NCBI GenBank assembly: GCA_052168235.1
Contig: JBQLZK010000027.1
Coordinates: forward strand, 19,536 to 83,535
Direction of reading: 5' to 3'
DNA: 64,000 nucleotides
DNA from: Thainema sp.
Lineage (GTDB): Bacteria; Cyanobacteriota; Cyanobacteriia; Phormidesmidales; Phormidesmidaceae
The notes beneath the pieces were generated by a model. That model was not told the origin of the DNA and did not search any database. It saw nothing but the letters and a program-made list of their open reading frames with translations. Of this stretch, positions 36,627-42,129 are shown one piece after another. The first letter of the stretch is position 1. Every line of letters begins with the position of its first letter. Position numbers and translations under genes: made by a program.

Positions 36627-37340
36627 TTACGGATTGGCTAGTTGCGTGAGTCCTTTGCGATCGCACACTTTAACTGTTGTTCCTTCAACTTCAATCAGGC
36701 CCGCCTGACTGAGTTTGTAAAACGTGCGGGACAGGGTTTCGGGAATGGTGCCCAGAAGGGCGGCCAGTTGGCCTTTGGGTAAATCAAGCTGAATGGTGTC
36801 TACCGGAGTTGAAAATCCGTTGGCGTCATCTGTGTGATCGCATAAATCAAGCAGATACTGCGCTAAGCGCTGGGGCACTTCGGTAAACGAAAGGGTATCG
36901 ACTAAACTCGCCAGTCGTCGCAGGTGACGGGCGAAGTTGCTTAACAGTGAGATCGCAAGTTTAGGCTGCTGTTCTAAGACCATCAAAAATGCGGCGCGGG
37001 GTAGAAATAGCACCTGTGTCGGTTCCAGTGCCGCAGCCGAAGCAGGAAAGCAGCCGCCATCAAGGGCGGGCACCTCGGCAAAATATTCGTTTTCGCTAAA
37101 GATATGCAGAATTTGCTCTTTGCCGTTGGGCGCGAGTTTAAAGACTTTTACCCGTCCCGATTGGATGACAAATAGACCCGTTCCTTCATCTCCTTGCCAA
37201 AACAGCGTGTCGCCTTTGCCGTAGGTTTGGGGAATGATGATATTGGCTAAAGAGAGCAACTGTTCAGGCTCAATTCCTTGAAACAGCGGCGTTTGCTGGA
37301 GGAATGCTTGGACGGCTTGAATGCGATCGCTGACGCTCAT
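36627..37340 (-). CDS. Crp/Fnr family transcriptional regulator
   Basis: cNMP-type domain; HTH LAALLGTIPETLSR. Confidence 0.9.
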   Translation of the reverse strand: MSVSDRIQAVQAFLQQTPLFQGIEPEQLLSLANIIIPQTYGKGDTLFWQGDEGTGLFVIQSGRVKVFKLAPNGKEQILHIFSENEYFAEVPALDGGCFPASAAALEPTQVLFLPRAAFLMVLEQQPKLAISLLSNFARHLRRLASLVDTLSFTEVPQRLAQYLLDLCDHTDDANGFSTPVDTIQLDLPKGQLAALLGTIPETLSRTFYKLSQAGLIEVEGTTVKVCDRKGLTQLANP

Positions 37341-37353
37341 GAAAATCTGTACT

Positions 37354-37935
37354 CTAACCTGCACCCGCTTCTTTTAACATATCTACCACCGCATCGTGAT
37401 TCACCTCTGGATCAGATGCTGCGTTTAAGCTGCGGCATTCTTCGTCCTGCGCCTCGCTCAAGGCCGTGGCTCCATCTTGCGTCGTTGAGTTCACATCTGC
37501 CCCAGCCGTGATCAGGAGTTGAGTATAGTCGGGTAGCCCATAGCAGGCTGTAACCACCAGCGCCTCATTGAGCGTCGCAACGTCCGCCTTGCCCATTAGA
37601 TATGTCGCTATTTCTTGATGCCCCAGCGTAATGGCAGTGACGAGCATACTGTCATTAAAAACCGGATCAAAGACCTGATTGGGATTAACCCCTTTCTGCT
37701 CAACTAAATTCTGTACCTGCTTCAGTTCATTATCAATCACCGCATCATGCAGCATTTGATCCGGACTCGCAGCTCGGGAACCACTATCCGACTCCGGCAA
37801 TGATTTATTGGCCGCTGATACAGGTATCTCATCAGCGCTTTCGGTTGTGGGCTGGGATGCGCGATCGCAACCGGACAGGAATGTGACGGAGCTAATAAGT
37901 GCGATCGCAATCAACAGGGATTTTTTGACAGTCAT
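37354..37935 (-). CDS. Ankyrin-repeat lipoprotein
   Basis: Lipobox LSGC; LLITAGADVN...GATAL. Confidence 0.75.
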   Translation of the reverse strand: MTVKKSLLIAIALISSVTFLSGCDRASQPTTESADEIPVSAANKSLPESDSGSRAASPDQMLHDAVIDNELKQVQNLVEQKGVNPNQVFDPVFNDSMLVTAITLGHQEIATYLMGKADVATLNEALVVTACYGLPDYTQLLITAGADVNSTTQDGATALSEAQDEECRSLNAASDPEVNHDAVVDMLKEAGAG

Positions 37936-38273: not shown

Positions 38274-39761
38274 CTACCGATGCCACTCCGTCACTCCACC
38301 AGGTTTATCAATCAGCGTAATTCCCTGAGCTTGTAGTTCGTCTCGAATGCGATCGCTTTCGGCAAAGTTCTTCGCCTTGCGTGCTTCCGTGCGCTGTTGA
38401 ATGAGCGAGTCAATATCGGCATCACTGAGATCGGAGGTGGATGTAGATTGCGATCGCGTATTGGGGTCAGCCTTTAATCCAAGTACCTCTGCTAAACAAA
38501 CTAACGTTTGCCAGTGTTGCCGCAGGGTATCCGGATCACCATCGGTTTGGCCTTGGTGGGTAATCACGTTGCCTTGACGACGCAGTTCTTTAGCCAGTTC
38601 AAACAGAACGGCTAAGCCTCCCGGCGTGTTGAAGTCGCTGTCCATTGCAGATTGGAACCGCTGTACATAGTCGCTGTCGCGGTCAATCCGCATCGCTGCC
38701 GGATCACCAAAGGCGGTATCCTGCACGTCCGGCCAGCCCAGCTTCTCGCCGAACTCGTAGCCAAACAGCAGTCCGTCTTGCAGGGTTTCCCAACTATTGT
38801 GGGCAGAGGTCATTGACTCTTCGGTAAAGTCAATTGGCTTGCGGTAGTTGCCTTGCAAGACAAATAGGCGCACGGCCATTGGATCAGGGCCGTTGGGCGC
38901 ATCCAGTAAATCCCGGATCGTGGTGAAATTGCCCAAAGATTTGGACATCTTTTCGCCGCCGACGTTGACCATGCCGTTGTGCATCCAGTAGGTCGCGAGG
39001 GAATGCCCGGTTGCCGCCTCTGACTGAGCGATTTCGTTTTCGTGGTGAGGAAAGACTAAATCGCCGCCGCCCATGTGAATGTCTACGGTGTCGCCAATGC
39101 GATCGCGGATCATGGCGGAGCATTCAATGTGCCAACCAGGACGACCCGCACCCCAAGGCGATTCCCAGGAAGGCTCGCCGGGTTTTGCGCCTTTCCAGAG
39201 GGCAAAGTCAAACGGGTCTTGTTTTTTGGGCGCATCTGGATCATCTGACACCCGACCACTGGCTCCGGCCTGCATGTCATCCAGCTTGCGACCTGAAAGC
39301 TTCCCGTAAGGGTCAAACTTACGCACGGAATAGTAAACATCTCCGGCTGAAGCGTAGGCATAGCCTTTTTGCTCTAGCTCGTGAATGAGCCGCTGAATGC
39401 CATTGAGCGTATGAGTGGCGCGGGGATATTCGTCCGCTTCGAGGACGTTGAGTCGCGCCATATCTTCTAGATAGGCTGCGGTGTAGCGCTCCGCCACCTC
39501 TTGCATAGTGGAGCCTTCCTGCTGTGCCCGATTGAGAATTTTGTCGTCGATATCGGTGAAGTTCTGCACATAATGCACATCGTAGCCGCGCCACATCAGA
39601 TAGCGCCGCACGGTGTCCCACACGATGTAGCAACGGGCATGACCCAAGTGTGAATAGTCATACACGGTGACGCCGCAGCAGTAGATCTGCACTTTGCCCG
39701 GTTCCAGGGTTTCAAAGGGTTCTTCGCGACGGGTAAGCGTGTTGTATATCGTCAGAGCCAT
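38274..39761 (-). CDS. cysS: Cysteine-tRNA ligase
   Basis: CGVTVYDYSHLGHAR, GRPGWHIECSAM, KMSKS. Confidence 0.98.
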   Translation of the reverse strand: MALTIYNTLTRREEPFETLEPGKVQIYCCGVTVYDYSHLGHARCYIVWDTVRRYLMWRGYDVHYVQNFTDIDDKILNRAQQEGSTMQEVAERYTAAYLEDMARLNVLEADEYPRATHTLNGIQRLIHELEQKGYAYASAGDVYYSVRKFDPYGKLSGRKLDDMQAGASGRVSDDPDAPKKQDPFDFALWKGAKPGEPSWESPWGAGRPGWHIECSAMIRDRIGDTVDIHMGGGDLVFPHHENEIAQSEAATGHSLATYWMHNGMVNVGGEKMSKSLGNFTTIRDLLDAPNGPDPMAVRLFVLQGNYRKPIDFTEESMTSAHNSWETLQDGLLFGYEFGEKLGWPDVQDTAFGDPAAMRIDRDSDYVQRFQSAMDSDFNTPGGLAVLFELAKELRRQGNVITHQGQTDGDPDTLRQHWQTLVCLAEVLGLKADPNTRSQSTSTSDLSDADIDSLIQQRTEARKAKNFAESDRIRDELQAQGITLIDKPGGVTEWHR

Positions 39762-39928
39762 GATGCACAGTCAGGGAGAACGTGTTCTATTTTTACTCAT
39801 ATCTGGCGCGAATACCTAATCGTGGCGTCAAGTCTAATGGCAAGCGCTATTCTGATGATAGTGACTGTTGCGGGCTTAGAGATACTAGACATCGACGGGA
39901 TATCGGCGGCTTTTGAAGGAGGAGGGAC

Positions 39929-40513
39929 ATGCCAGTAAAGGGGGATCTGCAAACGATTCTGAAAGAGAAATATGGCATTAACAAGAACATCAGCCAATCC
40001 TTGTCTACAGAGGATTGCGAAGCCATGCTGCTGCTATTGCAGAATCAGCCGAGCGCCCAAAAGCTAGTTGAATCCTTCATTGCCAAGAATGAAGAACTGA
40101 GCCGCAATAACCGTAACTTTGGTCAACAGCGCAGTCGAGCCGAGCAAAAGCTGAAAGATCTACAGGTTGAACATGAGAAATTGGAAAGTGCGATCGCAGC
40201 TTTAGAAAAGACCAATGCGTCACTGGGCAACCGTCGCGGTGAGTTATCGCAAGAGCAGCAACAACTAGAAGCCCAAATTCAGCAGTTAACCTCGCAAAAT
40301 CGAGCATTGTCGGGCAGGGTACAAAATCTTACGACGCAAAATGATGAGCTGATTGATGCCAACGAAAAGCTGAAGAAAGATAATAAAGACTTGAAAAATA
40401 TTGTTGACCAAATTCGCTTGCGGTTGGCGAGAGACACCAAAATGCTGCTGGAATATGAAGACAGCGAAATTCGCAAAGCGTTGATTCGGCTCTTCCGCTG
40501 GACTCTAGGATAG
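39929..40513 (+). CDS. Coiled-coil hypothetical protein
   Basis: Strong SD GGAGG; heptad-rich E/Q/K/L central region. Confidence 0.8.
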   Translation: MPVKGDLQTILKEKYGINKNISQSLSTEDCEAMLLLLQNQPSAQKLVESFIAKNEELSRNNRNFGQQRSRAEQKLKDLQVEHEKLESAIAALEKTNASLGNRRGELSQEQQQLEAQIQQLTSQNRALSGRVQNLTTQNDELIDANEKLKKDNKDLKNIVDQIRLRLARDTKMLLEYEDSEIRKALIRLFRWTLG

Positions 40514-40525
40514 AGAGCAACTGCT

Positions 40526-40951
40526 ATGGCTAGTCAAAAACGCCAACGCCGCACATTCAGCGGCATGAGCTATCGCGAAGTGCAGCGTTCCAATTCAGTC
40601 CGTCGCGATCAGCTGCCCAAGGCTGATCAGGCTTGGCTCAAAGCGCATGATTTTAAGAATGTCGGCTGGGATAATGTTATTCGGCTCTACCAAAAAATCA
40701 ATGAGCTATTTGCTCAATCGAACGACGACGATTTGAGTTTAGAAGAACTATTTCTGAAAGCCGATCAGATTGGTCAAACGTATCAAACATCTGCAGAAAT
40801 TGCCGCCTTTAATCAGCAAATGCAAACTGAGGTCAGCGCCATATCGGATTTAATCGATCAACAGTTTCCGGAAACAGAAATTGAGATAGTAGATTACAGT
40901 AAATCTGCCCGTTCTCCCATCAAGAATCAGCGGAAGAAGAACCGCCGGTAA
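40526..40951 (+). CDS. Hypothetical protein
   Basis: 12 bp after the previous gene; basic N- and C-termini. Confidence 0.75.
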   Translation: MASQKRQRRTFSGMSYREVQRSNSVRRDQLPKADQAWLKAHDFKNVGWDNVIRLYQKINELFAQSNDDDLSLEELFLKADQIGQTYQTSAEIAAFNQQMQTEVSAISDLIDQQFPETEIEIVDYSKSARSPIKNQRKKNRR

Positions 40952-40955
40952 GCTT

Positions 40956-41411
40956 ATGACGCGACCCGACAAAGATCTAGAAGACCTATTTAAGCTAGCG
41001 GACAAGATCGGCAACAAGCGATATAACCGACTCACTCGCCAGGACTTGGCGGACTATCGCAAGTTTGACCATTGGCGCTACGTCAATGGCGATATGGAGT
41101 GTGGCACGACGCAGGAAAGCAAAGATTGGGCCAGAGATAATTCAGACTGGCACTGTCCAATTTGCGCTGCACGATTTAGCGATGTGGGTGGTCGAACAAT
41201 TGATCATAAGCTGTCGCGTTCCCAATACCCGTGGCTTTCGCTAGACTTCAGAAATTTGTGGGTGATTTGTCGGGCCTGCAATCGAGAAAAGGGCGAGATG
41301 CACTGGTACGAGTATGAGCATTATGTTTTTGTTAACTACCCTGAGCGCTATCGAGATATTTGCCTTTATCGGCCAACTCACTTAATTAAAGAACTGAGAT
41401 CTAAGAAATAG
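40956..41411 (+). CDS. HNH endonuclease
   Basis: CPIC...TIDHK...YPWLSLDFRNLWVICRACNREKG. Confidence 0.88.
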   Translation: MTRPDKDLEDLFKLADKIGNKRYNRLTRQDLADYRKFDHWRYVNGDMECGTTQESKDWARDNSDWHCPICAARFSDVGGRTIDHKLSRSQYPWLSLDFRNLWVICRACNREKGEMHWYEYEHYVFVNYPERYRDICLYRPTHLIKELRSKK

Positions 41412-41493
41412 AAAGCGCGATCGCACCACCTGCATCGTAAATAAAATGGCACAATAAAGGACTGCGGTTTATTGAGAAGAGGCAGATTTCCCC

Positions 41494-42129
41494 TTGGCAC
41501 CTGTTCGAGTTCGTCAGCATGTTAATCCCCTGAGCGCCGCCTATCAGCGACCGATTGAGTTGCCGGATTGGTCAGTTTTGTATGAGAAACCGGATCGTCC
41601 GCTGCACGTCGATATTGGCTGTGCGCGGGGCCAGTTTTTGCTGGACATCGCTCAGCAGCAGCCGGACTGGAACTTTTTGGGGCTGGAAATTCGGGAGCCG
41701 CTGGTGCATCAGGCCAATGAGTTTCGGCAGTCGCTGGGGCTGACAAATCTGTATTTTCTGTTTTGCAATGCCAATGTGTCGCTGGGGCAGATTGCTCAAA
41801 CTTGGCCGACGCAGCGGGTGGATCGGGTGTCGATTCAGTTTCCCGATCCGTGGTTTAAGAAACGCCACCAGAAGCGGCGAGTGGTGCAGCCGGAACTGGT
41901 GGCGGATTTAGCGGAGTATTTGGTGCCTGACGGCATTGTGTTCTTACAGTCCGACGTTGAGGAAGTGGCGCAAGAAATGTGCGATCGCTTTTCGGAGCAT
42001 CCGGCATTTCAGCGCTCATCTGAGGACTGGTTGCCGGACAATCCCCTGGGTGTTTCAACGGAGCGGGAAGATTTGACCCTGTCGCGGGGAGATGCGGTGT
42101 ATCGGGCCATTTTTACAAAGGTTGCCTAG
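41494..42129 (+). CDS. trmB: tRNA (guanine-N7)-methyltransferase
   Basis: VRVRQHVNPL, DIGCARG, FPDPWFKKRH. Confidence 0.96.
   Translation: MAPVRVRQHVNPLSAAYQRPIELPDWSVLYEKPDRPLHVDIGCARGQFLLDIAQQQPDWNFLGLEIREPLVHQANEFRQSLGLTNLYFLFCNANVSLGQIAQTWPTQRVDRVSIQFPDPWFKKRHQKRRVVQPELVADLAEYLVPDGIVFLQSDVEEVAQEMCDRFSEHPAFQRSSEDWLPDNPLGVSTEREDLTLSRGDAVYRAIFTKVA

Follow-up and report, generated by a model that had tools for sequence, protein, structure and literature searches.

The window analyzed here, a stretch of 64,000 nucleotides from the cyanobacterium Thainema sp. (family Phormidesmidaceae; assembly GCA_052168235.1, contig JBQLZK010000027.1, positions 19,536 to 83,535 of the forward strand), holds a cassette of three co-oriented genes encoding a coiled-coil protein (CC), a middle protein (MID), and a small nuclease (HNH). 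An initial annotation, made from the sequence alone, had singled out this triad as a candidate undescribed defense or DNA-targeting system lying between the housekeeping genes cysS and trmB. That outline agrees with ours in coordinates, gene content, and protein sizes, in the intergenic gaps of 12 nt between CC and MID and 4 nt between MID and HNH, and in the identity of the two flanking genes (Table 1). We find the triad to be obligately linked, accessory to its hosts, and under purifying selection, and we argue, tentatively, that it forms a nuclease-based module of defense or conflict.

The sequence GAAGGAGGAGGG stands immediately 5' of the ATG of CC; the initial annotation had noted a strong Shine-Dalgarno sequence. 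The leader that precedes CC contains GATACT, a -10-like element, and CATACT, CATAAT, or TATAGT is found at a comparable distance in related loci. No consensus promoter was found by a scan of the leader (39825-39928). The promoter scan returned 2 sites against 2.3 expected and the terminator scan 6 sites against 2.4 +/- 1.8 expected, none of either kind usefully placed on the + strand, and an Rfam scan of 39500-41700 found no RNA family. The triad is present in a single copy in the genome of the window.

The last gene is the one with a recognizable family. PF01844 matches HNH over residues 67-113 at 29.2 bits (cutoff, 21.4), and C67, C70, D83, H84, N100, C105, C108, and N109 are invariant among 23 HNH sequences, as are a linker of the form WRY...G...G.T..S..W and a WYEYE.Y stretch past the core; the zinc-binding HNH nuclease of the initial annotation is thereby upheld. 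The protein consists of an N-terminal two-helix motif (residues 2-22, resembling the C-terminal module of MID described below), the conserved linker, and a core with the beta-beta-alpha-metal fold and a four-cysteine zinc ribbon. With DH...N...N and all four cysteines retained, the active site is intact. The AlphaFold model is of modest confidence (predicted local distance difference test [pLDDT] score of 66), and its fold matches are weak: the HNH domains of Cas9, PtuB of retron IA, and the nicking HNH of Gme (Z 5.1-5.5), followed by McrA, Cap5, and BrxU (all matches at Foldseek E >= 0.04 and Z 4.3-5.5). The likeness to PtuB that had been remarked on from the sequence pattern thus extends to a PtuB/Cas9/McrA group. 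Comparison of the HNH profile with the sequences of solved structures gave one chance match only. Residues 6-31 match Rho_N (E 0.012; 16.0 bits) below the cutoff of 24.9, a Rho_N/HeH-like similarity that hints at DNA binding by the N terminus; no HeH/SAP/Rho_N-like match was obtained for segments of MID or CC.

CC begins with a helical domain of about 45 residues, which occurs in two versions among relatives, continues as a coiled coil, and ends in a highly conserved segment of 70 residues that is 77-97% identical among the 120 matches listed of 256. Searches of Pfam, PADLOC, and NCBIfam gave coiled-coil matches only, all below cutoffs, and CC matched neither the MID nor the HNH profile. Its length is exactly 194 amino acids (aa) in 96 of the 120 relatives listed and differs from 194 by a multiple of 7 in 114 of them. 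Variation by whole heptads suggests a spacer in which both length and register are important. Source annotations label proteins of the triad "hypothetical," "HNH endonuclease," or "McrA," and CC "chromosome segregation ATPase." Two proteins that fuse CC to MID (P0340 and P0321) belong to single-member or unverified clusters; the CC and MID halves are separate hits in the matching genomes of the class sample and separate adjacent open reading frames (ORFs) in the two loci examined. We regard these fusions as weak evidence of contact between CC and MID. A fusion of MID to HNH was rejected, the apparent long frames being overlapping ORFs.

MID matched nothing in Pfam, NCBIfam, PADLOC, or PHROGs, and a protein atlas queried with it returned only its own cyanobacterial clusters. 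It has an N-terminal domain (approximately residues 10-60), a C-terminal module (approximately residues 65-129), and basic tails that are possibly disordered. The structural model is all helical (pLDDT 73); Foldseek found no match in the PDB at E <= 0.001, and the best VIA match (Z 3.9) was helix noise. Within the N-terminal domain, which sequence comparison identifies as an independent unit, Y16, Q20, N23, L30, N45, and W48 are invariant. Copies of this roughly 50-residue domain were also seen repeated two to three times in one protein or heading proteins of 300-385 aa that belong to no known family (P0317, P0316, P0339, P0353, and P0357).

Table 1. Features of the cassette and its flanks (window coordinates)
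Feature	Position	Strand	Description
CC gene	39929-40513	+	194 aa; coiled-coil protein, first of triad
MID gene	40526-40951	+	141 aa; middle protein, no known family
HNH gene	40956-41411	+	151 aa; PF01844 nuclease, last of triad
cysS	38274-39761	-	PF01406, 1.1e-130; left flank, outside cassette
trmB	41494-42129	+	PF02390, 3.4e-51; right flank, outside cassette
Leader/promoter region carried with cassette	39825-39928	+	Left part of indel relative to congener G001
HIP1 palindrome GCGATCGC	41417-41424	.	Right breakpoint of indel; begins 6 nt past HNH stop codon

Linkage, distribution, and selection

Among relatives of the window's genome, HNH was found in 12 of 41, including 9 of the 24 genomes of its own family, and was absent from the congener G001. 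Seven of the loci found in these relatives, all from the window's own family, have CC and MID ahead of HNH in the same order. A sample of the phylum gave any match to MID in 19 of 401 genomes, and all 13 strong matches had CC upstream and HNH downstream. Scanning a collection of 185,579 species genomes placed MID relatives on 117 contigs, whose record titles name cyanobacteria wherever a group is given. Eighty named cyanobacterial loci were retained from these contigs; the order CC-MID-HNH is kept in 79, and the 80th is interrupted by the end of its contig. The genes are therefore not unlinked in other genomes, and the triad proves to be both conserved and patchily distributed, two properties that the initial annotation had put forward for checking.

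The arrangement of the genes is also tightly held. Of 57 loci, 46 have 11-13 nt between the CC stop and the MID start, and MID and HNH overlap by 4 nt in some relatives. A named Leptolyngbya locus (L090:4372-5375) has about 1 kb between MID and HNH, compared with 20-180 nt in other loci, probably through an insertion into the operon. Products of decay were seen as well, namely, a solo HNH with a replaced N terminus (L009) and an HNH fragment adjoining the remnant of an insertion sequence (IS) element (L010).

The ratio of nonsynonymous to synonymous substitutions (dN/dS), calculated by the Nei-Gojobori method for 12 close pairs of loci, was 0.06-0.40 in 35 of 36 gene comparisons. The outlier, 0.93 for HNH in the pair L113-L119, is probably an alignment artifact, because the proportion of nonsynonymous differences (pN) reached 0.49 between loci that are otherwise nearly identical. 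Since gene order is conserved across loci and dN/dS mostly falls at 0.06-0.40, the three ORFs are real genes and not chance ORFs.

The named hosts of the cassette are mostly filamentous. A link to filamentous growth was considered and dropped: type 1, the cassette type found in the window, is also present in Xenococcaceae, Chroococcidiopsidaceae, and Acaryochloris, and the more distant types 2 and 3, described below, occur in unicellular genera.

A variable slot between cysS and trmB

Comparing the window with the congener G001 revealed the extent of the exchanged unit. The segment memb268-trmB and cysS are kept in G001 at 87-92% nucleotide identity; cysS is 99% identical across its first 99 aa, and trmB is 94-95% identical. 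In place of window positions 39825-41416, G001 has 1,066 bp of unrelated DNA. Because homology ends at 39824 and restarts at 41417, the exchanged unit consists of the leader and the three genes only. The presence of unrelated DNA in G001 makes the gap between cysS and trmB a variable slot, and among the relatives, the phylum sample, and the named loci, these two genes flank the cassette in the window only; the triad is not core synteny. No terminal repeats were found around the window cassette, and no integrase was found in the scanned neighbors. The GC content is 44-48% inside the cassette and 52-56% in the flanks, about 7 points lower. The slot in G001 holds a 96-aa ORF (L049:2475-2765) with a hydrophobic stretch in its N-terminal part and, toward the C terminus, a segment rich in G/L. 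In the window itself, upstream of cysS on the - strand (36627-37935), lie a 245-aa ORF and a 193-aa ORF with a lipoprotein-like N terminus.

We surveyed the context of 14 type-1 chromosomal copies, rather than that of the 80 named loci, taking four ORFs on each side (109 proteins). These 14 loci showed no conserved fourth gene. The neighbors, which include mfd, mdh, putA, cobQ, hemB, and carB, differ among loci, except that two Nostocaceae genera have a common context. Small neighbors of toxin-antitoxin (TA) type or endonuclease type (PIN, DUF433, XisI, Uma2, and a second HNH) occur at 5 of the 14 loci and IS elements or transposase genes at 1; integrase, phage, or conjugation genes adjoin none. 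Defense-like matches among the 109 neighbors amount to generic domains, one dynamin-like pair, Uma2, and one PtuB-like HNH. The dynamin-like pair (L042:2709-7242; PF21808, 9e-184; weak LeoA/LeoBC in PADLOC) lies directly upstream of its type-1 cassette. The PtuB-like HNH, of 144 aa (PF01844, 3.9e-12; PtuB-like in PADLOC), stands with a 134-aa protein about 660 nt from the type-1 cassette of G077 (L047:5993-6821).

A tree of the concatenated triad proteins was built for 78 named loci and the window, two of the 80 loci being left out for short matches. Taxa cluster on this tree beyond chance, if not cleanly, with 24 label changes compared with 37.1 in shuffles (0 of 200 shuffles as low). The window falls in a clade with 99% support that comprises five Coleofasciculales rows and two rows of its own family; other rows of that family lie elsewhere. 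Forcing six own-family rows together cost 445.9 log-likelihood units (approximately unbiased test, p-AU 4e-104) in a set reduced to 31 rows, under a simpler model and with the group chosen after the tree had been seen. On the evidence of the tree, the own-family copies are not one clade, and the history of the cassette is best read as vertical descent over short distances combined with transfer and frequent loss.

Shared domains and distant cassette types

The C-terminal module of MID links the cassette to other proteins. Its first helix-turn has the consensus L-E-E-L-F-x-x-A-D-x-I-G-x-K, and MID residues 66-86 align with residues 2-22 of HNH (hhalign probability, 84.6; E 6.8e-6). A profile of the module, searched against 1.84 billion representatives, recovered 123 proteins at E <= 0.001, 11 of which are non-MID proteins, mostly much larger, that carry the module inside. 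Among the carriers are three phage portal proteins (Portal_Mu, 6.5e-93; Portal_Mu, 2.8e-58; Phage_portal_3, 3.5e-41) and a 2,420-aa N6-methylase/SNF2 protein that matches the DarB-like anti-restriction family phrog_10089 (7e-111) and a large phage methyltransferase family (2.6e-268). Aligned by hhalign, MID reached a probability of 98.2 with a portal protein and 99.0 with the methylase-SNF2 protein, the latter with 51% identity over 65 columns. One protein has two C-modules in tandem. In their passages on polyvalent proteins, Iyer et al. (2017; PMC5512222) argued that two kinds of protein material are packaged and enter the host along with the DNA, namely, domains fused to portal and MuF proteins and the DarB-like polyvalent proteins themselves; those passages make no mention of the MID module or of cyanobacterial triads.

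The N-terminal domain of MID is common to two distant cassette types. Type 2 encodes a helical protein of 185-192 aa, a MID-like protein of 114-117 aa, and an HNH protein of 165-167 aa; type 3 encodes proteins of 147-154, 105, and 162-166 aa. The HNH cores of both types are homologous to that of type 1 (hhalign probability, 97.7; E 1.4e-12), and the first genes of the cassette types have no detectable homology (hhalign probability, 0.3). The third protein of type 3 (L138, L139, and L141) keeps the HNH core pattern, but none of the four zinc cysteines is left, and in L139 the DH pair carries Tyr in place of its Asp. These substitutions imply that the type-3 nuclease may be altered or inactive.

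Carriage on plasmids was observed for types 1 and 2. Type 1 is present on one Acaryochloris plasmid, and type 2 is present on five PLSDB plasmids, from Acaryochloris (two), Geminocystis, Euhalothece, and [Synechococcus] NIES-970. On Euhalothece pEu2, type 2 directly follows hsdM-hsdS-hsdR and a SprT protease; on Acaryochloris pREC4, it lies amid conjugation genes and adjoins VapBC and a RecB-like nuclease; and in Acaryochloris marina S15, it is near a strawberry-notch giant. A protelomerase of the ResT/TelK type (L135:12243-13304; PF16684, 2.1e-37) lies two genes upstream of type 2 on an 18-kb contig of the Nostocaceae-family genome G143, a setting suggestive of a plasmid or prophage that is linear and hairpin ended. 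Type 2 comes right after a family-A DNA polymerase on a 42-kb contig that also has a split type I restriction-modification (R-M) system, an integrase, and IS elements. Type 3 has housekeeping-gene surroundings.

Candidate functions and comparison with known systems

We propose that the cassette is a self-contained, horizontally exchangeable, nuclease-based module of defense or conflict with HNH as the effector, and we give this reading a probability of about 0.35. It fits best because the nuclease is intact, its partners are obligate, the cassette has an accessory and mobile spread, the distant types have R-M, TA, or mobile neighbors, and a module is shared between the cassette and proteins of kinds that invading elements inject. 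For the contacts between the proteins, the trigger, the substrate, and the phenotype, we infer the following model. CC would be a scaffold of fixed length, probably a parallel dimer, and MID an adaptor or inhibitor bound to it. The MID C-module would pair or compete with the N-terminal two-helix motif of HNH, so that the nuclease stays tethered or inactive. Entry of a phage or plasmid would disturb this arrangement and release HNH, which might then cut the DNA of the invader or, in abortive infection, that of the cell itself. The copies of the module in portal and DarB-like proteins are most simply read as injected decoys that would neutralize the nuclease; alternatively, they may be the trigger. 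Put together in its strongest form, as a new antiviral system in which the CC scaffold and the adaptor restrain HNH through the two-helix module and in which cyanophages and plasmids inject the captured module, fused to portal and DarB-like proteins, to disarm it, the proposal is improbable in our estimate.

Several observations weigh against a role in conflict. The dN/dS values indicate purifying selection only, with no sign of diversifying selection. In G005, the one genome in which both were measured, the triad proteins are 63-73% identical to those of the window and TrmB is 59% identical, and the HNH alignment has a mean column identity of 66% across orders; such conservation, at the level of housekeeping genes, is unusual for defense genes. 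The cassette encodes neither an NTPase nor any other evident sensor, and no recognizable defense system was found among the 109 neighbors of the 14 type-1 loci. Eight of these loci have only housekeeping or unassigned neighbors, and the context common to two Nostocaceae genera makes stable inheritance possible. The fusions to portal and DarB-like proteins each come from a single metagenomic cluster with no host assigned, and MID-like proteins were not found in IMG/VR or in GenBank phages. A prediction of the complex of CC residues 100-194 and HNH with MID as partner (score 0.09, mark 0.32) was uninformative either way.

The triad could instead be a three-component addiction module without an antiviral role, with HNH as the toxin, MID, from the gene directly ahead, as its antitoxin, and CC as a regulatory or stabilizing protein, maintained by post-segregational killing. 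A small protein followed by a nuclease across tight or overlapping junctions is the gene order expected of such a module, and the presence on six plasmids, the patchy distribution with an indel between congeners, the TA-type neighbors at several loci (PIN, DUF433, and a putatively BrnT-like ORF), and the basic, possibly disordered tails of MID all agree with it. TA modules usually diverge fast and swap partners, however, whereas the triad is strongly conserved and never separated. A TA pair has no evident use for a heptad-exact coiled coil of 194 aa, and the MID module in portal and DarB-like proteins would be left unexplained. We consider the addiction module unlikely.

We are equally doubtful of a lineage-specific machine for handling DNA (recombination, repair, or the processing of chromosomes or plasmids) in the polyploid, mostly filamentous cyanobacteria, dispensable and often lost. 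Such a machine would account for purifying selection and housekeeping-level conservation, for a coil length confined to whole heptads, for the single copy in the genome, for the clustering of taxa on the cassette tree beyond chance, and for the two genera with a common context and the eight loci with housekeeping or unassigned neighbors; the weak Rho_N/HeH-like match at the HNH N terminus, below its cutoff, also points this way. It is harder to reconcile with a cassette that was not found in most relatives (15 of the 24 own-family genomes), that a congener lacks at the same site, that has a GC content below that of its flanks, that is carried on plasmids, and whose own-family copies do not group as one clade. 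The placement of related cassettes beside R-M, protelomerase, and conjugation genes likewise argues against DNA handling.

Less probable still is a role in the service of mobile elements, as a weapon or an aid to establishment, with a nuclease directed against host or rival DNA or used to process the element's own, and with the chromosomal copies as leftovers or domesticated forms. Type 2 fits this description by its presence on five plasmids and its proximity to protelomerase, family-A polymerase, T4 coupling protein, and strawberry-notch genes, as does the MID module by its occurrence in portal and DarB-like proteins, which the passages on polyvalent proteins in PMC5512222 present as typically packaged and injected. 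At the type-1 chromosomal loci, by contrast, transposase genes occur at 1 of 14, and integrase, phage, and conjugation genes adjoin 0 of 14; no match was found in IMG/VR or GenBank phages, and purifying selection persists in the chromosomal copies. Selfish spread as a homing-endonuclease cassette, through cleavage of empty sites, to which the free-standing HNH gene, the tight boundaries (with G001 homology back 6 nt past the stop at the HIP1 palindrome), and the lack of integrase and terminal repeats might point, is very improbable, because there is no recurrent insertion site (it differs in every lineage examined), two extra proteins that homing genes do not need are under selection, and the congener slot is filled with other DNA rather than empty. 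A phage packaging HNH was rejected, because no terminase or portal genes were found among the 109 neighbors of the 14 loci or among 64 proteins of the distant types, cassette members included.

Defense catalogues have been built mostly from proteobacterial and firmicute genomes and cover filamentous cyanobacteria poorly. The cassette, with its three genes compact and strictly linked, occurs in at least 117 species representatives, and two of its three families are new to Pfam, NCBIfam, PADLOC, and PHROGs. Its heptad-fixed coil length and the module of about 65 residues common to the cassette, the nuclease, portal proteins, and the DarB-like protein are features open to experiment. If the module does control the nuclease, the cassette would be a simple case, accessible to testing, of a host regulator mimicked by phages; if cyanophages and plasmids did capture the module, a matched pair of defense and counterdefense could be read from sequence. 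Should the cassette turn out to handle DNA instead, the machine would be specific to its lineage and of use to cyanobacterial genetics.

By the family searches, CC and MID constitute two new protein families, and the cassette fits no named system. Full-text literature searches, with subscription papers and supplements outside their scope, found no description of such a triad. The initial annotation had recognized no known system in it, and no ATPase, reverse transcriptase, or methylase; this assessment stands, with the models for PtuB, retron HNH, and PDC-M01 not reached and no named system found in Pfam, NCBIfam, PADLOC, or PHROGs.

For CC, PADLOC and NCBIfam return the SMC-like proteins JetC, LmuB, and PbeC; these matches cover coiled-coil stretches only, at 13-25 bits (SMC_prok_B, 23.7 against 567), and a relationship to SMC proteins was rejected because CC has no ATPase head. 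The polyvalent proteins of phages and conjugative elements discussed in the passages of PMC5512222 cited above, which include P1 DarB-like anti-restriction proteins and portal/MuF fusions, are comparable in that a MID C-module of about 65 residues is found inside portal and DarB-like proteins; the proteins of the window differ in being small, separate, and chromosomal, and the C-module has no Pfam family.

Three-component TA operons are known, among them omega-epsilon-zeta and paaR-paaA-parE. They resemble the cassette in having three small genes that end in a presumed toxic enzyme and in their patchy occurrence on plasmids and chromosomes. No sequence or fold relationship to them was found, and the protein encoded first in the cassette is not a small repressor but a long coiled coil.

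The HNH domains of Cas9 and IscB and the nuclease McrA have the same DH...N...N catalytic pattern as the HNH of the cassette. They are its best fold matches, with weak structural scores: Foldseek probability 0.95 and E 0.04 for Nme Cas9 HNH, Z 5.5 for Geobacillus Cas9 HNH (root mean square deviation, 3.6; 91 residues aligned), and Z 4.3 for EcoKMcrA. The cassette's nuclease differs from all of these in standing alone, at 151 aa, with a two-helix motif and linker of its own, and in having no RuvC, guide RNA, or modified-base reader domain.

Septu and retron-Septu offer the nearest comparison. Like PtuB, the HNH of the cassette is a small zinc-ribbon nuclease of the same broad clade and the last gene of a small operon; the PADLOC models for PtuB and PDC-M01B match its core at 1e-9 to 1e-10, and Foldseek and VIA return the PtuB chains of retron IA, Ec78, and Ec83. 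Specific membership is contradicted by several differences. No ATPase of the PtuA type is present in the cassette or beside the 14 loci surveyed; CC and MID match no PtuA model, and the one PtuA model that gave a match did so to the HNH core itself (23.6 bits). NF041761 scores 12.5 bits against a cutoff of 150, and the PADLOC PtuB matches do not extend beyond the HNH core (1e-9 to 1e-5). The retron HNH family TIGR02646 scores 14.1 bits against 52.15, and no reverse transcriptase was found among the neighbors of the 14 loci. The M01B models of PDC-M01 cover about 68 of 285 positions at 1e-10, and CC and MID have no M01A match. By analogy, the cassette, while a member of none of them, would be closest in its working to the small HNH-effector operons represented by Septu, retron-Septu, and PDC-M01.

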